Positions 24,801 to 54,800 of a stretch of DNA of 64,000 bases are shown here, piece by piece. The notes beneath the pieces are model-generated. The model did not search any database. It was not told where the DNA came from and saw nothing but the letters and a program-made list of their open reading frames with translations. Numbering within the stretch: position 1 is the stretch's first letter; each line of letters starts with the position of its first letter. A program made the translations under genes and the position numbers. Origin of the DNA: Phyllobates terribilis (taxonomy: Eukaryota); NCBI RefSeq assembly GCF_046119375.1, contig NW_027362763.1, positions 359,538,001-359,602,000 of the forward strand. The letters are read 5' to 3'.

Positions 24801-27800
24801 GAGGAAATTTGTACAGTGTCTGACAAATCAAAATTTGAGATTTTTGGTACCATTTGGCCTTTGTGAGACACAAGAGGTGAGCGGATGGTTTTTGAACGTG
24901 TGGTCCCCAATGTGAAGAATGGAGACGGGGGGAGTGTGATTGCATGGGGGTGCTTGCTGGTAACACTTGATAATTTATTCTAAATTCAAGGTAGACTTAC
25001 TCAGCATGGTGTCACGCTGTCTCTGTATACTGGAGGTAGGGGGCCTAAGCTGACCCTAAGCTGGGGCCCTGACTAATCCCTCAACCTGGAGGTACTGTTA
25101 AAGGTACAGAGGTCCAGGCCGCCAGCGTAACCCCTACCTCCTGAAGATCCCTGCACCTCAGTAATCTAGTCCTGAGAAGGACCCCGATCACAACCAAAGG
25201 GAACAAGAAATAATATGCCCAAACACAGTATTTAAACGAACGAGACAGTACAAGGGAAAAACCAAAACCACCTTGCATACAAACAACTTCTCAACTACAA
25301 CAGAGGGAAAACCAACGGGAAAGGAGATAAATGATAAAGCGAGGAAAGGGAAAAAACACTTCCAAATACACTTATCTCAGCAACTCCAAACACCACGATC
25401 CGCTCTGTCAGTCTGAATGAAATGCTTTCACCGACACCTCCCAAACAGACCAGCAGGTATATGAAGGAGTCTCACTACAGAAGTATTGATTGCAGCTGGG
25501 CGAGGCTGGACCTCATCTAGCCCAGAGAGAGAGAGAGAATTAACTCCCTCACTGCCGAGAAACACAAAGCACCAACAAGTCAGCTGCGAGAAGTCAGGCT
25601 GTGTACTCGTGACGATCTTCGTGGCAACACACCCGTGACAGTACCCCCCCTTCTACGAGGGGCCTCCGGACCCTCAGGGCCAGGTTTATCCGGATGAGTC
25701 GTGTGGAAGGCCCGAACTAATCGGTCTGCGTTAATATCCGACGCAGGAACCCACATCCTCTCCTCAGGACCATACCCCTTCCAATGAACCAGGTACTGAA
25801 GGGACCGGCGATTAAAGCGTGAATCAATGACCCTCGATACCTGGAACTCCAAGTTACCATTGACAACCACTGGAGGGGGAGGTAAAAGTGACGGTACCAC
25901 CGGCGCCACATACCTCTTAAGCAATGATCTGTGAAACACGTTGTGAATTTTAAACGTAGGGGGGAGGTCAAGACGGAATGCCACCGGATTAATAATAGAA
26001 CTGATTCTGTACGGCCCGATGAACCTGGGACCCAGTTTCCAGGAGGGAACCTTAAGTTTTATATTCCTGGTAGACAACCATACCCGATCGTTCACACTTA
26101 GGTCCGGACCAGACACTCTCCTCCTATCAGCCATACGTTTGTATCGGTTCCCCATAGTATTCAGATTCTTCAGCACCCCTCTCCATACTGAAGCGAGTGA
26201 TGAGGAAAATCGTTCCTCCTCAGGAACCCCCGAAGAGCCCCCCCCACTGAAAGTACAAAACTGGGGTGAAAACCATATGCCCCAAAAAACGGGGACTTAC
26301 CAGTGGACTCGCTCCGCCTATTATTAAGAGCAAACTCTGCCAGAGGTAAGAAAGAAGCCCAGTCCTCCTGGTTCTCTGACACAAAACACCGGAGATATGT
26401 CTCCAAGCTCTGGTTCATACGTTCCGTCTGACCATTGGTCTGAGGATGAAAAGCCGATGAGAATGACAACTGCATCCCCCGCCGAGCACAAAACGCCTTC
26501 CAGAACTTAGACACAAACTGAGACCCCCGATCAGACACCACCTCGGAGGGTACCCCGTGAAGCCTCACAATCTCCCCAATGAACACCTGCGCAAGAGTTT
26601 TAGCATTAGGGAGAGCCGGAAGAGCGATAAAATGTGCCATCTTGCTGAACCTGTCCACTACAACGAGTATGACCGTTTTACCCGAAGACGGAGGGAGGTC
26701 CGTAATAAAGTCCATAGACAGATGAGTCCAAGGACGCTCCGGGATCTTCAAAGGTAAGAGGGCCCCAGACGGACGGGTATGTGAGGTCTTAGAGCGCGCA
26801 CAAACCCCACAGGACGCGACAAAAGTTACCACCTCCTTATGTAAATTAGGCCACCAAAACCGACGCGAGAGGAGATCCACAGTAGCTTTACTCCCCGGGT
26901 GTCCTGCAAAAACTGAGTTATGGTGTGCCTCGATCACCTTTTGTCGCAACTGATCTGGAACAAACAATCTCCCTGGAGGTCCAACAGGGGCGTCCCCCTG
27001 AGCCTCCAATACCTCCTCCTCCAGCTCAGAGCATACTGCCGAAACCACCACCCCCTCCTGAAGGATAGGAATCGGGTCGTCCGTATTCCCGGCCCCCGGG
27101 AAACTACGAGATAAGGCATCCGCCTTTACATTTTTTGACCCAGGACGATATGTAACGACAAAATTAAACCTGGTAAAAAACAATGACCACCTAGCTTGTC
27201 TGGGATTCAGACGTTTCGCGGACTCCAGATATAGCAGGTTCTTGTGATCGGTGATGACGGTGACCGGATGAACAGCCCCCTCCAGAAAATGGCGCCACTC
27301 CTCAAAAGCTAACTTAATGGCCAAGAGTTCCCTATTGCCGACATCGTAATTCCTCTCAGCGGACGACAATTTTTTAGAGAAAAAGGCGCACGGATGCCAC
27401 TTACCAGGGGACGAACCCTGTGACAATACTGCTCCCACCCCTACCTCGGAAGCGTCTACCTCTACAATGAATGGCTGAGACGCATCAGGTTGAATGAGTA
27501 TGGGCGCCGAGGCAAAACATTTTTTCAAAGAGGAGAATGCTTGACAAGCCTTGTCAGACCACCTAGAAAAATCCGTCCCCTTTTTAGTCATGTCAGTGAG
27601 AGGCTTAACCATGGACGAGAAATTACGAATGAACTTCCGGTAATAATTAGCAAACCCCAGGAAACGTTGTAGTGCCTTAAGATTCTCTGGCCGATCCCAC
27701 TCAAGAACTGCCCGCACTTTCCCAGGGTCCATACGAAAACCGGACGCTGAAACCAGGAAGCCTAAAAACTGGAGTTCCTGTACGGCGAACACACACTTTT

Positions 27801-30800
27801 CCCACTTGGCATACAGTTTATTATCCCGCAAGATCTGTAACACCTGCCTAACGTGCTCCTGATGAGACACCAGATCCGGCGAGTAAATTAGGATATCATC
27901 CAGATATATGACAACAAACTGTCCCACCAAGCGGCGAAAAATGTCATTAACAAAGTGTTGGAACACCGCCGGGGCATTAGTCAGACCGAATGGCATGACA
28001 AGGTTCTCATAATGCCCCTCCGGAGTGTTAAACGCCGTCTTCCACTCATCCCCCTCCTTCATCCTAATCAGATTGTACGCCCCCCTGAGATCCAACTTAG
28101 AAAACCATTTGGCGCCCACGATCTGATTAAAGAGATCGGGAATAAGTGGGAGCGGATACGGATCTCGGACCGTAATCCGATTAAGTTCACGGAAATCCAG
28201 GCAAGGGCGTAGGCCTCCATCTTTCTTCTTAACAAAGAAGAACCCCGCAGCCACCGGTGAAGATGAAGGTCTAATATGCCCCTTAGCCAGACTTTCTGAG
28301 ATATAATCCTTCATGGCCTGCCTCTCAGGACCAGAAAGGTTATACAACCTAGCTTTAGGTAACTTGGCCTCAGGGAGCAGTTTTACAGAACAGTCATACA
28401 CGCGATGAGGAGGTAGTTCCTGACACCCTTTCTCCGAGAATACATCCTCAAAGTCCGCCAGAAATGGAGGTAAGACCCAAGGAGTAACCGCACCAATGAC
28501 CGTGTTCATGCAGTTTTTATTACAGAATTTACTCCATTGGCTTATCTCCCTGGTTTGCCAATTAATAACCGGGTTATGCTTAGCTAACCAAGGAAGGCCC
28601 AACACAATAGGAGTGGGAAGACCCTCCAACACGTAGCAAGACAACAGTTCTTTATGTATAGCCCCCACTTGAAGTTTTACGTCATGCACAACTTGCAAAA
28701 AACTTCCCTGCCCGAGAGGCCTGGCATCGATCGAGAATATGGGGATGGGTTTAGCCAACTCACTCAACCGCATACCTTGAACCCGGGCAAACCGAGCATC
28801 AACCAGATTAGCCCCGGCCCCACTATCCAGAAGAACAGATATCCTCTCAGTTCTCGTACCCACCACCACCTCCGCCGGTACGAGAAACTGAGACGAACCT
28901 AGGGACGAAATACCTACTCCCAGATTGCCGTCCACCACACAACCTGGGATCAACAGTTTTCCGACGACTCTTCACTCTGCAAGGGACGGGATGGACACCC
29001 CCCAATAAAATGTCCCTTTCTCCCGCAGAAGAAACACCTTCCTGCCTTATGGCGCACCACCGGTCCCCTCCCCCGAAATGATGTCCCTCCTAATTGCATA
29101 GGCTCCTCAGGACTGACCAGGGGAACCACCATATGAGGGGACCTTGTAGGAGGTGGAGTCATCACAGGGGGTAGAGTTATCCCGCACCTCTCCCGAAGCC
29201 GTCTGTCCACGCGAATAGCGAGGGCCATAGCGGCTTCCAGAGACACGGGAGAGTCATACTGTGCCAACACATCCTGTAATTTGTCGGATAAACCATGACA
29301 AAACTGGCTCCTAAGAGCCGGGTCATTCCACTGGGTGTCCGTGGCCCACCTACGGAACTCCGAACAGAATTCCTCCGCCGGACGATCTCCCTGCTGGATC
29401 CTACGTAACTTAGACTCAGCAAGGGAGATCCGATCTGGGTCATCATATACGAGTCCCAGGGCAGCGAAAAACCTATCCACTGACTGGAGAGCCGGGGAAC
29501 CCGGGGGAAGAGAGAACGCCCAAGATTGTGGGTCCCCTTGTAGGAGCGAGATGACAATTCCCACCCTTTGTTCTTCACTCCCCGATGACCGAGGCCGCAG
29601 CCGAAAGTACAATTTACATGCCTCCCGGAAAACAAAAAACTTGTCCCGCCCCCCAGTGAACCTATCAGGGAGAGCTACTTTAGGTTCTGGTCCGGCTTGC
29701 TCCTGAGGATGCCAAACCTTGGACCTAACGTCCGCCAGCTCCATGGACAAACTCTGCAATTGCCGAGCTAGACCGGCTACTGGATCCATAGTAGCTGGAG
29801 AAAAACTAAGTGGGTCGGTGAAAATGTCACGCTGTCTCTGTATACTGGAGGTAGGGGGCCTAAGCTGACCCTAAGCTGGGGCCCTGACTAATCCCTCAAC
29901 CTGGAGGTACTGTTAAAGGTACAGAGGTCCAGGCCGCCAGCGTAACCCCTACCTCCTGAAGATCCCTGCACCTCAGTAATCTAGTCCTGAGAAGGACCCC
30001 GATCACAACCAAAGGGAACAAGAAATAATATGCCCAAACACAGTATTTAGACGAACGAGACAGTACAAGGGAAAAACCAAAACCACCTTGCATACAAACA
30101 ACTTCTCAACTACAACAGAGGGAAAACCAACGGGAAAGGAGATAAATGATAAAGCGAGGAAAGGGAAAAAACACTTCCAAATACACTTATCTCAGCAACT
30201 CCAAACACCACGATCCGCTCTGTCAGTCTGAATGAAATGCTTTCACCGACACCTCCCAAACAGACCAGCAGGTATATGAAGGAGTCTCACTACAGAAGTA
30301 TTGATTGCAGCTGGGCGAGGCTGGACCTCATCTAGCCCAGAGAGAGAGAGAGAATTAACTCCCTCACTGCCGAGAAACACAAAGCACCAACAAGTCAGCT
30401 GCGAGAAGTCAGGCTGTGTACTCGTGACGATCTTCGTGGCAACACACCCGTGACACATGGCTACCATAAAATTCTGCAACATGCCATCCCATTTTAGTAG
30501 GACCATTATTTGTGTTGAAACAGGAAAATGACCCAAAACAGAACTCCAGGCTATGTAAGGGCTATGTGACTAGGAAGGAGAGGGACGGAGTGCAGTGTCA
30601 GATGACATGACCTCCAAAAATCACCAGACCTCAGCCGAAATGAGATAGTTTGGGATAAGTTGGACAGTAGAGTGAAGGCAAAGCAACCAACAGGCACTCA
30701 GCACCTCTAGGAACTCCTTAAAGATTGTTGGAAGCCATTCCAGGTGACTACCCTTAAGCTGCTTGAGAGAATGCCAAGGGGTATAAATCTGTTATCAGAG

Positions 30801-33800: not shown

Positions 33801-36800
33801 GACATAGCAGTCGGTCAAGGAAACTTAGTGCAGCAGATGGGACGCATCATGCTTACTTTCCTTGGTAACTGAAAGCTGTCCAGCAGTGCCATCAGCTCAC
33901 TACTGGTTACAACCAGTTGGACCAGCTACACCCTTCTATTTGAGAAGTTGCCTTCATGTAAGAATTGCGGCCAAAAGCCATACCTTCATAATGAAAACAA
34001 GACCAATTGACTCAACTAAGCATGAAAATACAGGAACTGGGGTGCAGAAAAATGGCAGCGGGTTCTCTGGACTCAATGAAATATTTGGCTGTAACAGAAA
34101 GCAGCTTGTTTGCTTAAAGGCTGGAGAGCAGTACAATAATGAGTGTCTCCAGGTAACAGTGAAGCATGGTGGAGGGTCCTTGCAAGTTTGAGGCTGCAAT
34201 TTAACAAATGGAATTGGAAAATTGGACAGGATTAATGGTGTCCTCAATGCTGAGAAATACACGTAGATACTTATCAGTGATGCAGTACCATCAGGGAAGT
34301 GTCTTGGTTCCAAATTTATTCTGCAGTAGCACAACCACCCTAAACATGCAGCCAATGGCATTAAGGCATTTTTCCTTCCGTGTGAAGAAGAAAAAGGAGT
34401 CCTGGAAGTGTTATGGCCTCCTCAGAACCCTGATCTCAACATCATGTCTGTCTTGGATTCTGAAGGATTTACACAAGCCTACATCCACATAAGATCTGTG
34501 GTTATTTCTCTAAGACGTTTGGAACAAGCTACCTGCCAAGTTTCTTCAAAAACTGTGTACCTAGAATAGATACTTTGTGTAGTGCCGGCGTCCCTGCCCT
34601 CTGCTAGGCAGGGACGCTGCTCCCCTCACCGCTCTGCTCCGTGCCCGGCTTCCTCTCCCCGCTCTGCTGTCAGCGCGCGCTCCGTCCCGGCGTCCTCCTC
34701 CTGCTCTGCTCTCAGCGCGCGCTCCTTCCCGGCCCCTGTGCTTAGGGCGCGCGCTCCCCTCCTCTTAAAGGGGCCGCGCGCGCCGCCCTAAAGAGTCCCC
34801 GGCCAATGGCCGGAGGACTTCATCATATATAAGGCACCTCCTCCAAAATGGAGGTGCCCGAGCAATGTTGTTTGCACCTGTGTCTCACCTGTGCTTCAGC
34901 CCTCAGGTCCCGTTGCCAGTTACCTGCCAGTTTCCTGCTAGTTTCCTGCTAGTTACCTGCCAGTTACCTGCCTGATTCCTGCCTGAGTACTTGTTACCTG
35001 TCTGCCAGTCTGAGGTCCGACGGTCTGCCTTACTACTCCTGTCAGTCTGTCTAAAGGACCAGCCTGCCCGCTCACCTGGGAGCGCATATCAGCTACCTGC
35101 CTGCTTGCCTGAGGTCCGACGGTCTGCCTTACTACTCCGGTCAGTCTGTCTATGGACCAGCTTGCCCGCTCACCTGGGAGCGCTTCTCCGTTATCTGCCT
35201 GCTTGCCAGCCCGGAGGCTCCGTTGTCACGTGCTGTGACCACCAGCTATCTCAGAGACTCTTGCCCGCTCACCTGGGAGCGCATCTCCGTTACCTGCCTG
35301 CTTGCCAGCCCGGAGGTCCCGTTGTCACGTGCGGTGACCACCAGCTATTCCAGAGACTCTTGCCCGCTCACCTGGGAGCGCTTCTCCGTTACCTACCTGC
35401 CTGCCAGCCCGGAGGTTCCGCCGTCACGTGCCGTGACCACCTGCTATTCCAGAGACTCTCGCTTGCTCACCTGGGAGCACACATCTACCATCTGCCTGCT
35501 AGCCTACCCGGAGGCTCTGCCATCACAGGTCGTACCTACCCCTTACCCAGAGACTGCCCTGATCACTTGCCGTAACTCCCTGTCCGTTCACCCAGAGACT
35601 GCCACCCGCTCCCTTACAAGGGCCGCCCCCTTGTATAGTAGCTCAGAGGTTCCGCCTCCCGGACCCGTTACAGTCCGCCTCCCGGACCCGTTACAGTTTG
35701 CTCGGGCCATGGAACCCGGTGGCACCCAAGCTCCCTCGCTCTCGGACCTCTGTCTTGAACTGTCCCGTCAGAGGTCCCAACAGGAGGCCATCCTGGGTCA
35801 CCTGCGGAATGTTAATACTCGCCTGAACACTCTGTCTGATCCACCAACAACCTCCGCCAGTGCCATATCTTGCAATCCGGCAGCTCCGCTGCCCACTAAT
35901 ACTATGGTATCCTACCCCGGACCCCGGCTTTCTGCACCTCCTCGCTTCGGAGGCGACCCCGTCCAGGCTCGGGGCTTCTTAAATCAGTGCACCCTGCATT
36001 TTGAACTTTTGTCCTACCAGTTTAACTCCGACCGGGCCAAAATTGCCTTCATCATGTCCCATCTCACCGGGGAGGCCCTGGCCTGGCTGAATCCTCTATG
36101 GGAGAGAGGAGACCCCCTGGTGTCCAACTTGCCTGCTTTTCTCACGGCTTTCCGGAAAGTCTTCGACGAACCCGGACGGAAGACCTCATCTGCATCATCG
36201 TTGCTACGCCTCCGTCAGGGGAGTCTCACCGTGGGCCAATATGCCATACGGTTCCGTACCCTTGCCTCGGAGCTGGCCTGGGATAACGACGCTCTGGTTT
36301 CCGTCTTCTGGGAGGGTCTGTCCGGCCGTATTAAAGATGAACTTGCCGGTCGGGACATTCCTACCACTCTCGATGACTTAATAACTCTTGCCACCCGGAT
36401 TGACCTACGGTTCCAGGAGCGTGCCAAAGAGGTCACCCGTGAGAGAAGGATTCCACATTTAGCTCCTACTTTCCAGAAACCCGTCATTCCCTCCATCTCT
36501 CCCCAGGTACACTCTCCTGAGCCTATGCAGGTCGACCAGACCAAGATGGTCAAAACCCGTCAGGACTCACGCCGTGCCGAGGGGAGCTGCTTCTACTGTG
36601 GCAGTAAGGAGCACCGGATCCGTGCCTGCCCGGAGAGGTCGGGAAACGCCTGTGTCTAGGTTCGCTCAGAGAGGTCCACCTAGACAAGAATAAATCCTCT
36701 CCATCCCTGCTGTTGTCAGTTTCGATCATCTACGGGGAGAACCGTTATTTCGAACTAGCCCAACTTGACTCTGGAGCAGCCGGGAACCTTATTTCACAGT

Positions 36801-39800
36801 CCCTGGTTGAGAAATACCGCATCCCCACCAAACCTCTGGCTGTACCCTTGTCTGTCGCTGCCGTGGATGGGGGCCTCTTACCTCGCCCCATTCAACTCAT
36901 CACCGAATCCATTACCCTGCAGGTGGGAATGCTGCATTCTGAAAGTATCTCCTTTCATGTTCTGCCTGGACTCTCTCACGCCCTCTTGCTAGGTCTGCCC
37001 TGGCTCCAGAGACATGCACCCGTGCTAGACTGGCAAACCGGAGAGGTCCTTCGCTGGGGACAAGACTGTCATAAAACCTGTCTGGTTCCCGTCCATCCCG
37101 TCTGTCCCTCTCCTACCCCAGCTAATCTACCTGGACTTCCGATTCCTTATTGGTCTTATGCAGATGTCTTTAATAAAAAGGAGGCAGAGACATTACCTCC
37201 ACATAGACCATACGACTGTCCCATCGATCTGCTACCCGGTACTACTCCTCCCCGTGGGCGTATCTATCCTTTATCCGCTGCTGAGACCCGGTCAATGTCC
37301 GAATATATTGAGGAGAATCTGGCCAGAGGATTCATCCGGAAATCTACCTCCCCGGCGGGAGCAGGCTTCTTTTTCGTCAAAAAGAAGGACGGCTCTCTCC
37401 GTCCCTGTATAGACTATAGAGGCCTAAACCTGATCACGGTGAAGAATAAGTACCCCCTTCCGCTCATTCCAGAATTATTTGATCGTCTGAGGGGGGCTAG
37501 GATCTTCACCAAACTGGACCTTCGTGGGGCGTACAACCTGGTTCGTATTCGTCAGGGGGATGAATGGAAGACGGCATTCAACACCCGGGACGGCCACTAT
37601 GAATACCTGGTAATGCCCTTTGGTCTCTGTAACGCTCCTGCCGTCTTTCAAGAGTTGGTCAATGACATCTTCCGGGACCTTCTCTACTCCTGCGTAGTGG
37701 TGTACCTGGACGACATCTTGGTCTTCTCTCCGGATCTCCAGACTCACCGGAGGGATGTTCGTCAGGTCCTGCTCAGGCTAAGGCAGAACCATCTCTACGC
37801 TAAATTTGAGAAGTGCCTCTTTGAGCAGACCTCGCTTCCGTTTCTGGGCTACATTATCTCTCAGACCGGCCTACAAATGGATCCTGAGAAACTGTCTGCC
37901 ATCGAGAAATGGCCCCGACCGGAGGGGTTGAAGGCCATTCAGCGATTCCTGGGCTTCGCCAACTACTACCGCCTCTTCATACCACACTTCTCTTCCCGGA
38001 CGGCCCCAATTTCTGCGCTCACCCGTAAAGGTACTAATCCCAAAGAGTGGCCACCCGAAGCAGAGGAGGCCTTTCTTTCCCTTAAACAGGCCTTCTCTTC
38101 CGCCCCGGTGCTGCATCGCCCAGATGGCAACAAGCAGTTCTTCCTGGAAGTTGACGCCTCCTCCTCTGGAGCCGGAGCGGTACTTACTCAAAAATCATCT
38201 TCCGGGAGGATGGTAACTTGTGGCTTCTTCTCTAAACTCTTCTCCTCCTCTGAGCGCAACTATTCCATAGGAGACCGAGAGTTATTGGCCATCAAACTGG
38301 CATTGGAGGAGTGGCGTTACCTGCTCGAGGGGGCTCTTCACCCGGTAATAATTTACACTGACCACAAGAACTTGGCTTACCTCCAGCATGCCCAGAGACT
38401 TAACCCGCGCCAAGCCCGGTGGTCCTTGTTTTTTGCTCGTTTTGATTTTGTCCTTCATTTTCGCCCGGCTGACAAAAACGTCAAGGCGGACGCCTTGTCT
38501 CGATCCTTTCTGGTGTCTGATCTCGAGGAGGATCCGAAACATATCATCGATCCCACCAGAGTAATGCAGGTGGCTCCCGTGAGTCTAAATCGTCTTCCTC
38601 CTGGTAAGACGTTCGTACCAGTACCTGATCGGGAGAAGATCCTACACTGGGGTCATTCGTCTAAACTAGCTGGCCACGCCGGTCAGAAAAAGACCCTCCA
38701 GCTTATTACCCGGCACTACTGGTGGCCTAACCTGCACAAGGATGTAATAGACTTTGTTTCTGCCTGTGTGTCCTGCGCCCGCAACAAAGTTCCGAGACAC
38801 CTGCCGGCCGGCCGCCTCCTACCTCTGCCAGTACCTGCTGCCCCCTGGCAGCATATAGCGATGGACTTCATTACTGATCTGCCCGTCTCTGCCGGTTGTA
38901 CGGTCATTTGGGTGGTCGCTGACCGCTTCTCCAAGATGGCTCACTTCATTCCACTGCCAGGTCTTCCGTCTGCACCCGAGCTGGCTAAAGACTTTATCCG
39001 CCACATCTTCCGTCTTCATGGCCTGCCCCGTCACATCGTGTCGGATCGTGGGGTACAGTTCACTTCCCGTTTCTGGAGAGCCACTTGTAAATTGCTGGAC
39101 GTCACCCTGGACTTCTCCTCCGCTTACCACCCACAGTCTAATGGTCAAGTGGAGCGGATCAATCAGAACCTGACCAGTTACCTTCGGCACTTCGTTAATG
39201 CCCACCATTCTGACTGGGTGGATCTCCTGCCATGGGCCGAATTCTCGTACAACAATCACGAGAGCGAGTCTTCCTCCAAATCCCCGTTTTTTGTAGTCTA
39301 CGGTCAGCATCCTCGGATCCCGTTTCCCGTCTCCACCTCGGCGGACAATCCGGCTGCGGAATCTCTTGTTAACAAATTTTCCTCCATATGGGAGAGTACC
39401 CGGTCCGCACTCCTTCTGTCATCCGAGCGTATGAAAAGACACGCTGACAAAAAACGTCTGGACCCTCCTCAATTCCGCCCTGGGGATAAAGTCTGGCTCT
39501 CGTCCAAATATGTCCGGCTCAAGATCCCTTCCTATAAGTTAGGGCCTCGGTTCATCGGCCCACTGGAGGTCATCAGTCAGATCAACCCGGTGGCCTATAA
39601 ATTGAAACTCCCGGCCAACTTACGGATCCCTAACTCCTTCCATGTGTCTCTCCTCAAACCTGTGGTGCTTAACTCTTTTTCCAAGTCTACAGGTACGCCT
39701 CCTGCTCCGGTTTCTGCTGAGGACGAGTTTGAGGTAGAGAACATTCTTGCCACCAAAAGGGTAAGAGGAAAGACCTTTTTCCTGGTAGATTGGAAGGGGT

Positions 39801-42800
39801 TTGGTCCTGAGGAGAGAACGTGGGAGCCCCGGGAGAACATCCATGCCCCTCTCATCCTAGCTAAATTTCTGTCTGGCCTAAAAAAGGGGGGGCCTAAAGG
39901 GGGGGGTACTGTAGTGCCGGCGTCCCTGCCCTCTGCTAGGCAGGGACGCTGCTCCCCTCACCGCTCTGCTCCGTGCCCGGCTTCCTCTCCCCGCTCTGCT
40001 GTCAGCGCGCGCTCCGTCCCAGCGTCCTCCTCCTGCTCTGCTCTCAGCGCGCGCTCCTTCCCGGCCCCTGTGCTTAGGGCGCGCGTGCGCGCTCCCCTCC
40101 TCTTAAAGGGGCCGCGCGCGCCGCCCTAAAGAGTCCCCGGCCAATGGCCGGAGGACTTCATCATATATAAGGCACCTCCTCCAAAATGGAGGTGCCCGAG
40201 CAATGTTGTTTGCACCTGTGTCTCACCTGTGCTTCAGCCCTCAGGTCCCGTTGCCAGTTACCTGCCAGTTTCCTGCTAGTTACCTGCCAGTTACCTGCCT
40301 GATTCCTGCCTGAGTACTTGTTACCTGTCTGCCAGTCTGAGGTCCGACGGTCTGCCTTACTACTCCTGTCAGTCTGTCTAAAGGACCAGCCTGCCCGCTC
40401 ACCTGGGAGCGCATATCAGCTACCTGCCTGCTTGCCTGAGGTCCGACGGTCTGCCTTACTACTCCGGTCAGTCTGTCTATGGACCAGCTTGCCCGCTCAC
40501 CTGGGAGCGCTTCTCCGTTATCTGCCTGCTTGCCAGCCCGGAGGCTCCGTTGTCACGTGCTGTGACCACCAGCTATCTCAGAGACTCTTGCCCGCTCACC
40601 TGGGAGCGCATCTCCGTTACCTGCCTGCTTGCCAGCCCGGAGGTCCCGTTGTCACGTGCGGTGACCACCAGCTATTCCAGAGACTCTTGCCCGCTCACCT
40701 GGGAGCGCTTCTCCGTTACCTACCTGCCTGCCAGCCCGGAGGTTCCGCCGTCACGTGCCGTGACCACCTGCTATTCCAGAGACTCTCGCTTGCTCACCTG
40801 GGAGCACACATCTACCATCTGCCTGCTAGCCTACCCGGAGGCTCTGCCATCACAGGTCGTACCTACCCCTTACCCAGAGACTGCCCTGATCACTTGCCGT
40901 AACTCCCTGTCCGTTCACCCAGAGACTGCCACCCGCTCCCTTACAAGGGCCGCCCCCTTGTATAGTAGCTCAGAGGTTCCGCCTCCCGGACCCGTTACAG
41001 TCCGCCTCCCGGACCCGTTACACTTTGTTACTATATTGAAGGCAAAAGGATGGTCACAACAAATATTGATTATATTTACGTATAATTCTATTTTGTTTAT
41101 GAACTAAGTCATCATCAGTACAGTGGCTCAGTGGTTAGCATTGCAACCGTGCAGTGCTGGGGTCCTGGGTTCAAATCCCACCAAGGACAACATCGGCAAG
41201 GAGTTTGTATGCTCTCCCCGTGTCTGTTTGGATTTCCTCCGGGTTCTCCGGTTTCCTCCCACACTCCAAACACATACTGATAGGGAATTTAGATGGTGAG
41301 CTCCAATGGGGACAGTGCCCATAATGTATGTAAAGTGCTGCAGAATTAATGGTGCTAGGTAAGTAAGCATAAATAATAACTATTAACACTTCTACTTTTG
41401 AAAGTATTCCTATACTGCAGCATTTTTCCACATCTGCCTAAAACTGTTGCACAGTATTAGAATAACTAAAAATTAGGCAGCACATCCAATATGGTGGAAA
41501 AAAAAAGGGTAAGGCTCCTTTATTCACCCACATCCGCTATGTTTCAGCGCTCTCTATGGAAACTTTCTCAGGCAATGTTACCTGCTCACATAGTGAGGTA
41601 TACATACCTGCTGCCATTACATGGAGTCATTAGCATCATCATGCAGATATAGATGGTAATAGTTTCTATCCTGTATCACAACGCATTCATATAGAAAAGT
41701 ACGATTACATGTGATATAACAAAGTGCCAAATTCAGATATTATTAATAGCTCGGCTGTTTCAATCAAGTGAAATAATTACCCCATAAGGGTCAGTCCTGT
41801 ATCAATAAAACAAACAGTTTTCTTGAGAACTCCCTAACTGTGGACTTGTAGTACTGCAAGTTTCAGCATACCACTACCCAGACATGCGTCCGATAATCAT
41901 GTCGGCACTACGCCAGTGAACTAGTGCATTAGAGACAGTGCACGAACAATGGCCGATGGGGAGGTGCATGTGCACTTCAAAACTGTCAACACCGGAGCTG
42001 CTGCAACCTCCACCTACTGTCTCCTTCCCCGTACCTGTAGAATGTAAGCCCGCAAGGGCAGGGTCCTCTTCCCTCTGTACCAGTCTATCATTGTTCATTT
42101 GTTACTGTAAGTGATATCGGTATTCTGTATGTAACCCCTTCTCATGTACAGCACCATGGAATCAATGGCGCTATATAAATAATAATAATAACTGTCACGG
42201 TAACGATCATTTTGACTAAAGGAATACTGGTAGAAGAGCATTACTTAGAAATTAACACTAGAGGGAGCCCAATGCGCATGCCTTCAAATGACAAGTCACT
42301 CCACAATAGGGAAGAGCGAAATTAAAGGGAACCTGTCGGAACATTCGACCTGCCGAAACTGAGGGCAACATGAATCATAGCGTGGACAGGGACGAGACTA
42401 GTCCAGCATTTCTAGAGGCGATAGACAGATCTCTCCCATGTGCGTATATAGGGAGCGACCTGTCAATCACTTGCAGCAACACTGAGAAGAGCCTAGTAGG
42501 GGTGAAGCTGGACTAGTCTCGTTTCCAGCTATGGTCCCCGGACAGATGTTTTAACTTTTTTTTTCTCTGAAACAAAACGGAACGTTTAAGAGAATATAGC
42601 TAGCTACAGTTATACAGCTAGGCTCGTGTTCCATGCTGCCTGAGTATGGGCATCATGAATCAGATGATAGGTTACTTTTAAAGGGAATTTGTCACAAGAT
42701 TTTTGTTACCACATTTGTGAGGATCATGATGTGGGCTAGAGACCCTGAATCCAGTGATGGATCACCTACTGGGCTGCTTGCGGTCGTATTTATTAAATCA

Positions 42801-45800: not shown

Positions 45801-48800
45801 GCCCATATCGATCCGGATTGGCCCTCAAGTGACCCGAAGGGGGAGGGGACTGAGGTTCCTTGCTGTGAGGAATTGTTTTCTACCCGCCTGAAGACGCCAA
45901 AGGTAAGGCTAAGGCTATCTCCACCATGGAAGGTGGCAGATCCAGTATCCCTGCATCTGCAGAGCCCAGCACGCCCTAGGCTACAGTGAGTAGTACCTGG
46001 GTGGTCATTAAGGAGTTCTCAGCCTCTCTTTTCAATGACACTAGATCTCCCCTCTTTCTAGTTACATGGGTCCCCTTCTCTTCCCCTTTCTTAGGAAGAC
46101 AAGGCCCCCGCTTCTAAGAAGGATAAAGACCAGCCCCGTAGATGTGGCATCTGTGCTAAAAAATTGTCCTCATCCTATAAGAAGAAGTTGTGCCAACCCT
46201 GTATGGATAAAATAATTAAAGAAGAAAACCCCTCGCTAATCGAGGAGCTAAGATCACTTGTTAAACAGGAGGTTCAGGTAATTATACAGGAGGTCCAAGC
46301 TCATTTTGCTGCCCTGCCTGTCTACTCCTCCTCCAGGCCCTCTCCACTTAAGAAGAGGAAGATTCAAGAGTTAGGCTATGTGCCCACGATGCAGAAATGC
46401 TCAGGATTTTTTCCTGAGCGCTTCTGCATCTCCCTGGCAGAAAAAAACGCATGCGGATTGTACATGCGTTTTCCTGCCAGGGACATGCGGATGTGAAGCG
46501 TTCTTCACTTGCATTTCCGCATGCGGGTTGACAAGCGCTTTCCAAGCGATTTTAGCATCACTTGGAAAGTGCTTGACAACTTGGTCACATTATATAAATC
46601 CATGCAACCGGCATAGATTTATATAGTGTGACCTGAGAGAATGTCAAAAAATAAATGTATACTTACCCTCCGATGGCCCCCGGTGTCCTGCTTCACTCCG
46701 TTCTCCCTTGCCGGCAGCGGTAACTGAAGGACCTGCCGACGTCAGCATCGCTTGACCCGTCACACGACTGACGTCAGCGCAGGTCCTTCATTCCATCGCG
46801 AAGTGCCGGGAAGCAAGGGCGCGGGCCGCCGGAAGGTAAATATATATTTTTTATTTTATTCTTTCTTTTACAGATTTTTTAATGGTACCTGGGTGTGGAT
46901 GAGACTCTCCTCTCCTCTACACCCGGGTACCATTCGCACATTAGAACGCGCCAATTACGCAAGTACAGATGCAGTCTTGCGGAATTGGCGCGTTCTAATG
47001 CAAGTCAATGGCGACGAAAACGCAGCACTTCCGCAAAATAATTGGTAGTGCTGCGTTTTTTTCCGCAATGATAATCCGCAGCGGAAATTTCCGCAGCATG
47101 TGCACAGCACATGCGGATTATCATTGGGGGACATGGCAGGCCTTCTACCATGCGTTTCTTAAGCGTTTCTGCAGCGTTTTTCAGCCTTAGACTCAGATGT
47201 GGTCTCTATTGACGCTAGTAGCTCCGCCTCTGATGATTTTGATGAAATAGCATCCTTAGGGCCTGCCAAAAAATGTAGAAATTGGAAGATATTATTTTTC
47301 CTCAGACAACTTAGAGGAATTACTGGACGCAGTTAGAGGCACTATGGGGCTGGAGGAAGTTGAGGTGCCCTGTTCTGTTCAGGATGAGATGTTTAGGGGC
47401 CTTAGATCATAAAAGCAGACGAGTTTTCCAGTTCATGAGGTCATTAGAGATCTCATCCGACAGGAATGGGAATCCCCGGAAAACCGTCTCACCACCCCTT
47501 CGGAATTAAAGCATAGATTTCCGCTGGAAGGTGAAGAATTTGAGTGGGACGTCCCTAAGGTGGACATCCAGGTGGCAAGGGTAGTGAGGAAAAGCTCACT
47601 TTCCTTTGAGGACTCATCCCAATTGAAGGATCCATTGGACTGGAAAATGGAAAGCGTCCTTAAAAAAATCATGGGAAACCTCCTTTGCCTCTCAAAAGGT
47701 CAATATTGCATCGACTTGTGTGGCCAGATACCTCTTCAAATGGCTCGCCCAACTAGAGGAACATCTGTCTTCTTTTCCAGGGCAGACCTGCTAGACTCCA
47801 TCCCTCTCATTCAAAAAGCAACGGGCTTCTTAGCGGACGCCTCGGCTGAGTCAGTCCGGATCGCGGCCAGAGCAGCTGTCTTACCCAATACTGCTCGCCG
47901 TGCATTGTGGCTCAAAACATGGAGTGGGGATGTCACCTCTAAGGTTAAACTCTGTTCCATTCCATTTCAAGGGAAATATGTATTCGGGCCAGCCCTTGAT
48001 GATATCCTGGAAAAGGCCTCGGACAGGAAGAAAACCCTTCCTGAACAGAAAAACTAAGAAACGTTCCTTTAGACCTTCCCAGAGTCACCCCGCACAATAT
48101 AGGGGAAAGGGAAAATTTGGGCGCTGGAGCTATCCTAAAGGCGGCAAGGGCCGTAACATCCTTGTACCCCAGCAACAACACGAGCAGCAGGACAAGCAAT
48201 GACTTGGTCTGTGCAGGGGGGCGCCTCTTGGATTTCTTTCCCCAGTGGTAGGCAATATCTTCCTGCCAGTGGATCCTCAATACCATCGAGGAGGGTCTTC
48301 TATTGGAATTCAAGAGTCGCCCCCCCCTCAGGTCCTGAGGATCACGTCCCTTCCTTCTCGGGAGCTCAGGAACTGCTTATCAGTTGGTCTGCAAAACCTT
48401 CTGAGATCCAGAGTAGTATCTCCAGTCCCCCCTGGCCGGGAGGGGACGGGTCACTACTCAAAAATATTCCTAATACAGAAACAGTCAGGGACCTCACGCA
48501 TCTTAATCAACCTGAAGTCCCTAAACCATCACATCAAATACAGACGATTCAAGATGGAGTCTATAAAATCAACTATTCCCTTAATAGGGAAAGATTACAT
48601 CATGGCAACCATAGACTTAAAAGATGCATACTACCATGTGCCGATTCATCAGTCCCACAGGAAGTTCCTGCGCTTTGCAATCTTCAGGGACAACATAACA
48701 GAACACTACCAGTAAAATGTACTGCCCTTCGACATCTCTTCAGCACCCCGGGTGTTTACGAAGATTATGGCAGAACTCATTGCACTCATCCAAAAACAAG

Positions 48801-51800
48801 GTGCCTGCATAATTCCATACCTGGACGACATGTTGATTGTCGCCCCTTCGGTGGTGACTCTCAATCTTCATGTTTTTATAACCTTAAAAACTCTTCACTC
48901 ATTAGGTTGGGTTCCGAACCTAAAAAAGTCGAAACTCCTTCCTTCGTCGAGGAGGAAATTCCTTGGTGTCTTGCTGGACTCCAACAAACAAACATCCTTT
49001 CTTCCGTTGGAGAATCAAACAGCTCTCAGAACCAAGATCTCAATTTTCAGACACCAGGAGAATCCAACATTGAGAGCGACAATGTCTGTATTGGGGTCAA
49101 TGACGGCCTGTATCCAGTCGGTATCGTGGGCCCAGACCCACTCAAGGCTCCTCCAGGATCATATCATATGATCTTGGAACAGACACAGGGACTCACTAAA
49201 CAAACAGACCAGGACCCCCGGTCGGGTAAAGCTTCTCTTTCTTGGTGGCTAAGCTCCCAAAATCTTCAAAGGGGGATTTCTTGGACCCAGGACCCTCTAA
49301 TTACAGTGACTACCAACGCCAGTATATGAGGCTGGGGAGCCATGGTGGCCCAGACTCCTTTTAAAAACAGATGGAGTCCCGAGATCAGTGCCAGATCCTC
49401 CAACTTCAGGGAGCTAAAGGCAGTAGAAAAAACGCTCAGAGCAGCAGTCGACCTAATCCAGTGTACTCACATCAAGATACTCTCGGACAATGTGACTACA
49501 GTTGCCTTCCTTGGTCATCAAGGAGGAACGAGGGTAGACAGCCTGAAACAGATCGCAGGTCGAATATTTTCTTGGGCAGAACATCTCCTATCACTTTCGG
49601 CAATTCACCTGAAAGGCTCAAACAACATTCAAGCAGACTTTTTAAGCAGGAAAGACATCCAGCCGGGAGAATGGAGCCTGGATCTTAAAATATTTCAGTC
49701 ACTGGTAGCAAAATGGGGTCTCCCCGAAGTAGCTCTCTTTGCCAGTTGCTTAAACGCAAAGCTTCCCCTCTTCTTTTCATTGGACAGAAGAGACAATGCC
49801 ATGAATTTGGACGCATTAGCCCATCCCTGGCATTTAAACTGGTCTATGCGTTTCCTCCAATTCCACGGATAGTTCTTGCTATCCAGAAAGTCAGGTTAGA
49901 GATAGTGGCAACAATTCTGGTAGCCCCTCTGTGGCCCAAAAGGCCTTGGTTCGGGGCCATCACAGAACTTTGCCTGGATGGCCTGGTGATACTTCCACAG
50001 GTCAACAACTTTCTCTCACAAAGCCCCCTATTCCACCCAAATCCTCAGTGGCTAAACCTTGCAGCCTGGTTACTGAAGCCGAGATCTTAAGCTCCAAAGG
50101 TCTCTCGGAAGAAGTTGTAATAACTCTTCAACAGAGTAGGAAACCAGTAACCAATGCTATCTATATACGGCAAAATATGGAAAAAATTCCTATCATGGTA
50201 CGCCCAGGATATTCCTGATACCGCACAGCCCAACATTGCTCGGATCCTTGATTTTTTTTACAGAGTGGATTGGAGTTGGGTCTCAAACCCAGTACTCTCA
50301 AGGTGCAGATTTCATCCCTAAGTTCCATATTCGACCAAGATTTGGCCTCTCACAGACGGATCAAGAGATACATGACTTCGGCTCTCAGACTTCACCCAAG
50401 AATTCAGTCTCATGTCCCATTCTGGGATCTTAATGTGGTGCTCAGGGGTCTAACCCTCTCTCCCTTCGAGCCTCTATCCTCCAGTACAATACAGACTCTC
50501 TCTCATAAGACTGCCGTTTTAGTAACCATCACTTCAGCACGGAGAGTAGGAGAACTGCAGGCTCTATCCATCAGAGAACCTTACATGAATGTGACTGAGG
50601 ATAGAATTACGCTTCGCCTGGACCCTTCCTTTCTCCCAAAGGAGGTTACGGATTTCCATCGTTCCCAGGACGTCATCCTTCCCTCCTTCTGCCAGAAACC
50701 TTCTAATTCAAAGGGAGCAGAGTTCCATCTCCTAGATGTCCGCAGAGTTGTCCTTTATTATCTTCAACAAACTGAGTCTTTGAGATTGGATGAAAATCTA
50801 TTTATACAACACTCAGGGCATAACAGAGGAAGGAAGGCAGCTAAATCCATTATAGCAAACTGGATTAAAAATGCAATTGGGGAAGCCTACATCAACCAAC
50901 AGATGGATCCACCGATTGCCTTAAAAGCTCATTCTACCAGATCTACATCAACTTCATGGGCCGAAAGAGCGGGCGCTTCTACAGAGCAGATTTGCAGGGC
51001 AGCTACATGGTCTTCCCTTCACACATTTTCCAAACATTATAGATTAGACTTATCCATTAGGGATTTAGCCTTTGGTAGGAAAGTACTACAAGCTATTGCC
51101 CCTCCCTAATAAAATATCGTTGGTATTCCTCCAATGCTGTCGTGGAAGGCGTATTGAGAAAATAGAATTAGTCCTTACCAGTAATTCGGTTTCTAGAAGC
51201 CTTCCACGACAGCATGAATTTCCCTCCCTATGGATTCCATATAACTGTCAGGTAACCATTTTTTTCCAGGTGATCTTGGTAAACACTGAGGACTGACGGT
51301 GGGGATGGGCTTTTAACCTCTCTATGTTCCTGTCCCCCAATAGGGCGTGGACAACATCCTCCAATGCTGTCGTGGAAGGCTTTTAGAAACCGAATTACTG
51401 GTAAGGACTAATTCTATTATCTTCTCTGTCAAGAACAACAAGGGGTAACAGAAGTGATGATATGGCCCCAGAGACTTCTGGTCGTATCATCGAGTCTGTC
51501 AGGGATTACAGTAAGAGACAGAAGGATTTGCAGAAGCAGATCTGTGGTTAGTACTCCAAGATGTCTGGAACAACCTCCCTGCTGAATTCCTTGAAAACAT
51601 TGTGGAACTGTACCTTGAAGAATTGATGTGGTTTCAAAGACACACCAAATACTGAATTGATTTAGATTTCACTAATGTTCATTAACTTTGTTAATAAAAA
51701 TTAACTTTTATTTTTTTAAAGCATTCTGTATTTGGACAAAAAAATTTCTTTCTACACATCTGCTTAAAACTTTTACACAGTACTGTGTGTCTCCAAAAAA

Positions 51801-54800
51801 TAGCAGAGTTTTTTCAAAAACAGTGTGTAAGAATACCTAGAAGAACTGATGTGGTTTTTGAAAGTAAAGAGTTATCACACCAAATATTTAATTTAGATTT
51901 CTCTTTTGTTCATTCAGTTTGCATTTTGTAATGATAAAATTAAACTCATAACATTTATATTGTTGATAGTATTCTAAGGGTATGTGCACACTACTCCTTT
52001 TTTCAGGCAGAATCTGCTTGGAATCTGCCTAAAAAGCAATGTAAAAAATGAATATAGTGCACAGCAGTGTCATATCTACATTGCTGTGCCCATCTTCAGT
52101 CTTATGCCACTTCTTTTAACCTCTTCAGGGTTCAGAAACCATGAAGCAGTTAAAATAAGTAATATGCTAATTTTTCTCTATATACTTGAACATATAGGAC
52201 AAAGATGCCGGCAGCCAGAACCATTGAAAAAACGACTGAAAAGATGCCGGTAAAGACGATTAGGAAAATGTCTGCTGGTATTTTCCTGACGCGTTTTCAG
52301 CTTATAAAACTCTGCGCTTCTGCTATACAGTAGAGACCAAAAGTGTTGCTTTTTTTTTTTTATTTTTTATGCGTTTTAGGTTAAAAAAATATGTCAAAGT
52401 GGCATCCTAAATTACTAAAAGTGATGGCTCTGAGACATAGAAACTACGTTGCTACTATAGAATATTATGAAAAGCACTACAAAATGTATACCTGAAATAT
52501 TTCAAAAAATGTTTCTGTAATATGAAAATTGCAGTAAAGGAAAGTACTTAGTGCATAGATTGGCCAATATATGTGTGCCCAACAGCCAGCGTCAAGGCGT
52601 CCTTCATTGTTGGGTCCCTGTCCTACTTTGTCACCCCTTTCCTGGGCTGAAAGCCTACAATTTATGGGTCAGGACTGAACTATCCCACAGAGTCCACAAG
52701 GATCCGACGCGCGTTTCGCCGATGGCTTTCACATCCTCGTGAAAGCCATCGGCGAAACGCGCGTCGGATCCTTGTGGACTCTGTGGGATTGACAGGTACT
52801 TTATGGCAGCATTACTTTTCCATGATGACACATGTAGCCACACACGTGGGCCCATAGGTACCACTGTAATCTCTTTCTAATAATTGGGCTCGATATATAT
52901 ACATAATTATGTGCTTCACTGTGTTTACATAGATAGCTTAGAACTATAACTCAGAGAAATCACTCTTAGTAATTTAGGATGCAACTCTGGACGTTTTTTC
53001 ATAGTTTGTATTTTTTAAAAGTAGGCTCTTGTTCACACTGGATGTGCTTGTCATTTTCGCTATTTGTTTTAGGTTAAAAACATGGAAAAGACAAAGACAA
53101 ACTTATCTCCAGGAGTCAGGAAGCTTATTATTCTGAGAGTGAAGTCAGGCAAAAGCCAAAAAGAGGTAGCGATGGAATTCAACTGTTCTCAGAGTCAAGT
53201 GTCACGTATATTAAAGAAAGAAAAAGAAGTTTATGGATCAGCTGACAAACCTAAAAGTGGACGACCACAGAAAACTTCCTCCAGAGTTGATCACATTATT
53301 AAGAAAAAGTCAGTATCTGCTGTTCATAAAAGTGCTGTACAGATTTCACACGAAGAATATGGAGTCAAAGTGAGTGGCCAAACTGTGGTGCGACAGTTAA
53401 GAGCAGTATGGTTGAATATATGAGTTCCAGTCAAGAAGCCTTTCATCTCTGCAAAGAACCGGAAAGTCCGACTAGAGTTTGCCAAAGAACACAGCCAATG
53501 GAAAGAGACAGATTGGTCTAAGGTGTTGTGGTCGGATGAATCCAAGTTCAATCTGTTTGGTAGTGATGGCAAGCACTATATATACCACCCAATTGGAAAA
53601 CGTAATGATGTAAGGTACCAAACACCTACAGTGAAACATGGTGGTGGCAATGTCATGGTTTGGGGCTGCTTTTCTACATCTGCCATTGGCCCTTTGCATA
53701 GAATTGATGGAAATATGAATGCTACCATGTATGAGGATATACTGGAGAATGTAATGCTGTCACATGGCAAAAGCAAAGTAGGCAGCGGATGGAAATTCCA
53801 GCAAGACAATGACCCTAAGCAAACATGCAATTTAGTCAAAAATTGGTTAGGAAAGAAAAATGTTTGCCTGTTGCAATGGCCAAAACAATCACCTGATTTA
53901 AACCCTATAGAGCATCTTTGGGATGAGTTAGGGCCCGTACCCATAGCAATATAGGTGAATTATTTGCAGATTTGCAAATAGCATGGAGCAAGATCCCTGA
54001 AGATGTCTTGAATACCCTAGTGGCTTCAATGCCTCATTGGTGTGATGCAGTAATTAAAGCAAGAGGTTATGCTACAAAATACTAAGTTATGGCATTGTAA
54101 ACAATGAATTACTCTCTATGTTATGATCAATAAATAGTATATGTAAAACTTTTGGCAGTCAGTTTTCTTTAAATGACCATACCTATATTCAAAAGCATTT
54201 TGGTTAAAATTAAGGTCTTGCGTGATGACAACTTCATGCACTTTCAATTCACCAGGGAAATGGCATCACAAAACCCAGACAGAAGTAATCACACTTATAA
54301 AAAAATGCAAAACTTTAGGTCACCGCTGTCTTAAGCCTTACTTTGCTTTTTTTTTTCCCACACGAGCCTAAGACTGTTGCACAGTTCTGTGTGTGCACAT
54401 ATAAATATATATGTGTATATGTGTGTACTGTTCTGTCCAGTACTGAGGACATCCTGTGCTTGTTGGTTACTTACCTTTTTTGTGACAATGTAGATACGGA
54501 ACACAAGAAACAGTGTCAGCAGGTAGAGCACAGCAAAGATATACTGAGCCAGCCGGATGTTGGTCCCATGCTCAGTTAGGTAGTAAAATGCACCAAAAAT
54601 GTAGACAAATCCAGCAGGATACCTATTAAAAAATACAAAATGCCATATATTATAGTCAGCTTTCTTTAGTATAAAATTGTCTTTTCCAAGTAAAAGTTGC
54701 TGGGTCATATCAAGGACATCTCTACCAGCACTTTCACCAACTACTGTGTCATAACACTGGCGCAAGACCGCTTCATATACTCGGGTGGGGAGAGCGCGGC

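Follow-up and report, generated by a model that had tools for sequence, protein, structure and literature searches.

A frog chromodomain retrotransposon that probably primes reverse transcription with its own RNA

Element B, a chromodomain Ty3/gypsy retrotransposon of the frog Phyllobates terribilis, very likely primes reverse transcription from its own RNA, as judged by sequence comparison. The element resides in a 64,000-nucleotide stretch of contig NW_027362763.1 (positions 359,538,001–359,602,000 of the forward strand), which was analysed as a whole and is referred to below as the window. The putative primer-binding site (PBS) following its 5' LTR, TTGCTCGGGC, is the exact reverse complement of GCCCGAGCAA, a 10-mer located within the same LTR at the predicted start of the transcript. 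The form of priming that appears probable for element B is that of the fission-yeast element Tf1, in which the 5' end of an RNA pairs in cis with its own PBS. Self-priming is well supported because six different primer/PBS letter pairs retain one geometry and because the clade is known for the mechanism. The original prediction that element B self-primes is thereby upheld on comparative rather than biochemical grounds: the geometry covaries across families and the clade fits. Coordinates of the features are collected in Table 1.

Table 1. Features of elements B and A in the window
Feature	Positions	Strand	Remarks
Element B	34578–41022	+	chromodomain Ty3/gypsy element, Phyllobates terribilis
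Target-site duplication CTTTG, B	34573–34577 (left), 41023–41027 (right)	+	
5' LTR, B	34578–35695	+	1118 nt, TG...CA
CCAAT box, B	34803–34807	+	23 nt 5' of TATA box; putative role, from sequence
TATA box TATATAAG, B	34826–34833	+	
Inverted repeat, B	34833–34841 with 34850–34858	+	perfect, 9 bp; spans predicted U3/R border, covers primer +1 to +3
Predicted self-primer GCCCGAGCAA, B	34856–34865	+	predicted +1 to +10; the base before it is T (pyrimidine-purine start)
Loop between primer and PBS, B	34866–35697	+	832 nt, 640 nt in tandem arrays
11-nt-unit array, B loop	34914–34983	+	
99-nt-unit array, B loop	34995–35517	+	
23-nt-unit array, B loop	35651–35697	+	
U5 stretch, B	35648–35654	+	7-bp pairing potential with 35710–35716 at gag start; candidate second 'pretzel' duplex
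Spacer GT, B	35696–35697	+	2 nt, between 5' LTR and PBS
Putative PBS TTGCTCGGGC, B	35698–35707	+	starts 2 nt after 5' LTR, ends 1 nt before gag ATG
gag, B	35709–36659	+	316 aa, CCHC-type motif near end, open frame
Slippery heptamer GGGAAAC, B	36641–36647	+	in gag
pol, B	36608–40129	+	-1 frame; protease, RT (YLDD), RNase H, integrase, SH3_Tf2-1, chromodomain; extends into 3' LTR
Polypurine tract, B	39896–39906	+	
3' LTR, B	39910–41022	+	second primer-sequence copy at 40194–40203, behind same hairpin as in 5' LTR
Element A	25010–30455	-	chromodomain element, target-site duplication CCATG, 631-nt LTRs
Predicted self-primer GTCGGTGAAA, A	30241–30250	-	28 nt after CATATA
Putative PBS TTTCACCGAC, A	29814–29823	-	complements GTCGGTGAAA; loop 417 nt

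Element B belongs to the Ty3/gypsy chromoviruses, as is evident from its LTRs, target-site duplication, domain order and chromodomain. The borders of the 5' LTR are set by the 3' LTR and the 5-bp duplication. The pol frame is open and its Pfam domains follow the order PR-RT-RH-IN-chromodomain, with the chromodomain (PF00385, E 4.3e-11) at the end of the integrase. The gag and pol frames overlap by 52 nt, with pol in the -1 frame and the slippery heptamer present, a layout from which -1 frameshifting is predicted. The two LTRs differ by only one substitution and two indels, and the insertion is therefore young. The best match of the RT-RNase H region is a named Phyllobates terribilis protein (98% identical), and among the 120 homologues listed for this region the named hosts are mostly frogs and fish. 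The open gag and pol, the domain order, the nearly identical LTRs and this nearest protein all agree with the original description of an intact frog element. In some sequencing runs, thousands of contig pieces align with the element's 5' end at 80–100% identity, numbers that are consistent with an abundant family. The GT spacer mirrors the AC that separates the polypurine tract from the 3' LTR, giving the arrangement AC/TG...CA/GT (slashes mark the LTR borders). Two tandem G-runs precede the 3' LTR (39885–39909, + strand), into the U3 of which pol continues for ~73 codons (39910–40129, + strand).

The CCA end of a mature tRNA needs TGG at the PBS. In element B the sequence directly 3' of the 5' LTR is GTTTGCTCGGGC, and the first TGG is encountered 15 nt past the LTR, within the gag start codon. 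With no TGG adjoining the LTR, the CCA end of a mature tRNA cannot pair there, in agreement with the original statement that a tRNA PBS is lacking. When the first 18 post-LTR bases were compared with the 1118-nt LTR, the primer match proved to be their sole complement of at least 7 nt. Counted from the first T of TATATAAG, GCCCGAGCAA begins 30 nt downstream, that is, 22 nt past the end of the TATA box; the coordinates first reported for the two complementary segments, and their distance from the TATA box, all hold. Chance complementarity is an extremely improbable explanation. It draws some support from the finding that, when the LTR was shuffled with its dinucleotides preserved, 230 of 20,000 versions (~1 in 90) contain a 10-nt match somewhere, and from the many elements that a scan covers; a match at TATA+22 to +38, a range picked with knowledge of the result, arose in 3 of 20,000. 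Against chance, the pattern is repeated in element A and in four of six relatives with other letters and fixed spacing, and the cross table of PBSs and LTRs presented below contradicts a chance origin.

The transcription start of element B is predicted, from its sequence context, to be position 34856. Of 18 sequencing runs, none is listed as an RNA data set; five of them, all in the form of contigs and hence uninformative about transcription starts, were mapped to the element. Contigs from four runs, representing four organisms, match it from approximately the TATA box to 34870–34872, and the loose contig ends listed for these runs start behind 34870–34877, mostly 34870–34872. No variant at a frequency of at least 3% is listed in the block from the TATA box to the primer, where variants close to the end of a short contig would be concealed. 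Copies thus seem to keep this block and to diverge just after it, a pattern that could reflect promoter conservation instead. None of 13 AATAAA-type hexamers is present in the 5' LTR of element B or element A, which leaves R and the strand transfer unplaced. Rfam searches across 34500–36000 gave no match at E values up to 1, and no tRNA genes were found within the 64-kb window. The motif GGAGGTG ends at the predicted +1 in both frog elements (B, 34850–34856, + strand; A, 30256–30250, - strand), despite their different primers. The leader of element B also contains two upstream ATGs (34865–34975 and 35152, + strand), which open frames of 36 and 28 codons out of the gag frame; the first of them straddles the predicted cut site between +10 and +11.

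A second chromodomain element of the window, element A, displays an equivalent pair of sequences in other letters, GTCGGTGAAA and TTTCACCGAC. Its RT-RH is 62% identical to that of element B. The match of element A was reproduced anywhere in the LTR in 91 of 20,000 shuffles and near the TATA box in 1 of 20,000, and in folding the pair probability of primer and PBS was 0.43–1.0 at all four end points considered. Element A is young; its pol is divided into two frames near position 26200, late in the integrase.

In order to extend the comparison, eight related loci (L001–L008) were retrieved; two of them, L006 and L007, lack an LTR/PBS junction and were excluded. Four of the six readable relatives (L001, L002, L004 and L008) carry a self-complement of 9–11 nt located 1–2 nt past the LTR end, and their predicted primers start at a pyrimidine-purine step, 30–44 nt after a TATA-like motif. 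When elements A and B are included, all six primers have such a start, 28–44 nt past a TATA-like motif, and the six elements represent six different primer/PBS letter pairs with the same geometry. Per 5000 shuffles, matches numbered 24 for L001, 48 for L002, 45 for L004 and 2 for L008, the LTR end of the latter being deduced from one LTR only. In a 7x7 cross table, the PBS matches its own LTR over 9–10 nt in five of the seven rows and foreign LTRs over 4–8 nt in 41 of the 42 cells; the lone exception is L003 against L001, which have their PBS in common. L003 itself possesses no complement to this PBS within 305 nt (best 6 nt, reached in 3976 of 5000 shuffles). Only the last 78 of the 305 nt align to the LTR of L001, and L003 may be truncated, yet it is counted as a miss. 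The remaining relative, L005, whose branch is the longest in the tree and the most distant, carries a site of the TGG type and lacks a self-complement.

The tree comprises 24 rows: elements B and A, seven of the eight loci and 15 of the 120 listed homologues. Elements B and A fall inside a 16-row fish/amphibian clade (support 100/99) beside fungal rows. Assignment of element B to the vertebrate Tf1/sushi clade (V-clade) is suggested by hosts, domains and layout, the tree itself being without named Sushi-ichi, Amn or Tf1 rows. L004 and L008 are probably fungal, and no relatives were found among viral contigs. The eukaryotic chromovirus-like pol of L006, L007 and L008 occurs in three bacterial MAG records, probably as a result of contamination or of chimeric contigs.

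These data bear on the possibility that a host tRNA fragment or another small RNA primes synthesis, the LTR complement serving leader circularisation, control of gag translation or strand transfer. Priming by half-tRNAs exists, reported only for plant Ty1/copia lineages in the accessible parts of PMC6317226, and an effect on translation is possible because a single nucleotide separates the primer/PBS duplex from the gag ATG. We nevertheless find a host primer quite improbable: without TGG beside the LTR a mature CCA end is unable to pair, and six elements have six distinct sites, each with its complement in the LTR of that same element. A translational role is not general either, since the gag ATG lies 24 nt from the site in element A and 53 nt in L004.

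The loop of element B is the longest among the six elements compared, the others measuring 144–417 nt (240 nt in L001 and 144 nt in L002, both of the fish clade; 159 nt in L004 and 276 nt in L008, outside it). RNAs beginning at 34856 were folded with ViennaRNA; predictions for RNAs of 900 nt are unreliable and take neither pseudoknots nor Gag into account. The pair probability of primer and PBS was 0.73–1.0 at three of five 3' end points, and 0.41–1.0 and 0.52–0.71 at the remaining two. Folding of the 5' leader, a check proposed together with the original prediction, hence favours the duplex at most end points but not in the minimum-energy fold at 35760, where forcing the duplex costs 0.9 kcal/mol. 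The loop's first three bases could pair with the three that end the LTR. As the duplex forms across 832 nt, loop length is no barrier in the model. With shuffled loops, 16 of 30 reached the native value of 0.71 at 35760 (the lowest native end point) and 6 of 30 reached 0.99. Randomised loops pair about as well as the native one, so the repeats carry no sign of adaptation and a special role for them was rejected; judging from the model, they are most likely a tolerated expansion outside the mechanism. What had been called an unusually long, ~830-nt, repeat-filled loop is thus indeed the longest of six and largely made up of tandem arrays, but it is not special in its pairing. We found no published range of loop lengths for self-priming elements; Additional file 1 of PMC6317226 may contain longer loops. 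An intron within the loop was rejected by reasoning, since the loop is retained in both LTRs and no splicing is required for the primer match. Contig joints that skip 75–557 nt inside the loop hint at length variants, these being single contigs with fewer than 30 letters per side. The 99-nt repeats leave the gag frame stop-free for 218 codons 5' of the gag ATG (35055–35708, + strand), without an ATG of their own.

Loop length would be irrelevant if priming occurred in trans, with the 5' end of one RNA of a packaged dimer pairing with the PBS of the other. Such priming fits every sequence result equally well, including loop lengths of 144–832 nt across six elements and a native loop no better than shuffled ones, and cis and trans pairing are inseparable by sequence. 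We regard priming in trans as decidedly unlikely, because cis pairing is already favourable in the folding model and the 5' UTR of Tf1 is described, in the accessible parts of PMC10085805, as folding singly into a three-duplex structure.

The beginning of the predicted cis primer is embedded in a hairpin (34833–34858) of -19.7 kcal/mol, equalled in none of 5000 shuffles and possible only in RNA carrying U3. The cost of opening the 10-mer is 9.5 kcal/mol when U3 is present and 1.6 kcal/mol when it is not, and for RNAs starting at 34833 or 34800 the probability of pairing with the PBS is at most 0.36. The model predicts that the hairpin would hide the primer copy of the 3' LTR and stop it from competing for the PBS; the hairpin could equally be a promoter feature acting at the DNA level. 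In element A the difference in opening cost is smaller (5.7 versus 3.2 kcal/mol) and pairing is kept with an upstream start, and the effect is absent in L001, L002 and L004, so that it is not general among relatives. Literature searches, beyond the reach of which key papers lie, returned no masking hairpin in print. The hairpin weighs against a primer taken from the 3'-LTR copy or from an upstream-started RNA cut internally. In favour of such a primer, an identical 10-mer is present in the 3' LTR and the 3' end of the RNA is not fixed by any poly(A) signal. It is very improbable, however, given the difference in opening cost, the poor pairing of upstream-started RNAs (element A being unaffected by an upstream start) and the position of the match, which begins at TATA+30 on a pyrimidine-purine step, like that in five other elements. 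Taken together, a self-derived primer acting in trans or supplied by the 3' copy is rather unlikely.

A helix between U5 and the gag start, 7–10 bp long and with its U5 part 33–48 nt before the LTR end, can be drawn in element B, L001, L002 and L003. Against 1000 shuffles, the best U5 helix passes in L001 (23) and L003 (28) and does not in element B (253), L002 (192) or L004 (392); element A (736) has no such flanking helix. The candidate helix of element B is thus not significant alone, and on present sequences flanking duplexes of the Tf1 type are not established in this element.

From the observed complementarity, its position, the missing TGG-type site, the open RT and RNase H and the geometry shared with relatives, the following course of cis priming can be proposed by analogy. 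The RNA would start at 34856, and its first 10 nt would fold onto the PBS in vivo. The RNase H of the element would then cut after nucleotide 10 to produce the primer, as in Tf1, the RNA of which is cut between nucleotides 11 and 12. Extension would pass through the GT spacer into the LTR, yielding a strong-stop cDNA of ~830 nt that starts with the 2-nt spacer. The integrase would trim the terminal dinucleotide, as is established for retroviruses, which fits the symmetric ends of the element. The U3/R hairpin would keep both the 3'-LTR copy and upstream-started RNAs off the PBS.

Element B adds no new mechanism, since self-priming has already been described for Tf1/sushi elements including those of vertebrates. 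In the accessible parts of the papers cited, self-priming is called a common feature of Tf1/sushi elements (PMC10085805) and is implicated from fungi to vertebrates (PMC4600332; PMC6317226), so that these three sources bear out the earlier remark that the Tf1 mechanism had been proposed for vertebrate sushi-group elements. According to the same portions of text, priming without a tRNA has been demonstrated in fission-yeast Tf1, and for vertebrates it is only 'implicated' or predicted. In Tf1 and Tf2 of Schizosaccharomyces pombe (with Tj1, Tosmo1-3 and Tcry1), as in element B, the first RNA bases complement a PBS just past the 5' LTR, and the Tf1 primer is released by an RNase H cut (PMC7175516, PMC4600332, in part), the release predicted here for the frog element. 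The primer measures 10 nt in element B and 11 nt in Tf1, where the first 11 bases pair and the cut falls between bases 11 and 12 (PMC7175516, in part). Tf1, for which self-priming has been shown by experiment whereas element B is known from sequence alone, requires two further duplexes flanking the primer duplex (PMC10085805, in part). Tf1 and Tf2 each possess one ORF and no CCHC motif, in contrast to the gag, pol and CCHC-type motif of element B (PMC10085805, in part). The start of Tf2 was mapped by RACE and CAGE (PMC5341516, in part).

With the vertebrate Tf1/sushi clade, element B shares the chromodomain integrase, the gag/pol -1 overlap with its heptamer, the CCHC-type Gag motif and a 5-bp target-site duplication, as well as a PBS complementary to the LTR and not to a tRNA; its nearest relatives are of fish and amphibian origin (PMC6317226, PMC10085805 and PMC4600332, accessible parts). 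It differs from the two fish-clade relatives measured in its 832-nt loop with three arrays (144–240 nt in the relatives) and in its U3/R hairpin, absent from both. Self-priming has likewise been predicted from sequence for plant Tcn1 chromoviruses (83% of 1500 elements) and TAR copia elements (89% of 203; PMC6317226 Additional file 5), which, unlike element B, inhabit other hosts, TAR moreover belonging to another superfamily (PMC6317226). No frog case of self-priming was found in print by literature searches, outside the reach of which key papers lie, and the accessible parts of PMC7472051, PMC4340606, PMC3601003 and PMC2864245 contain nothing further on frogs.

Element B is a young, intact and apparently abundant frog element whose primer and PBS form an unambiguous pair, adjoined by a second family with other letters. 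The exact ends predicted in frog RNA are a cap at 34856, a cut at 34865/34866 and a strong-stop cDNA of ~830 nt. The element suggests that the mechanism can cope with a long loop full of repeats, and self-priming elements might escape silencing by tRNA 3' fragments. A more speculative scheme, which we put forward as doubtful, is that sushi-type elements of poison frogs run a primer switch: the hairpin would lock the primer except at the correct 5' end, and the primer duplex and U5 helix would close over the gag start and turn translation into reverse transcription, enabling self-priming across a freely expanding 832-nt loop. If true, this would be the first vertebrate example of regulated self-priming to be worked out, as far as our literature searches could find.

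Other parts of the window contain further mobile sequences. ORFs with a LAP2alpha match and a YLDD-type motif (47413–51109, + strand) we take to be, probably, a broken DIRS-like element, and an ORF with DUF659 (57363–58541, + strand) is presumably a piece of a hAT-type transposase. An inverted repeat with perfect arms of 51 bp and a loop of 6 nt occupies positions 52682–52789.
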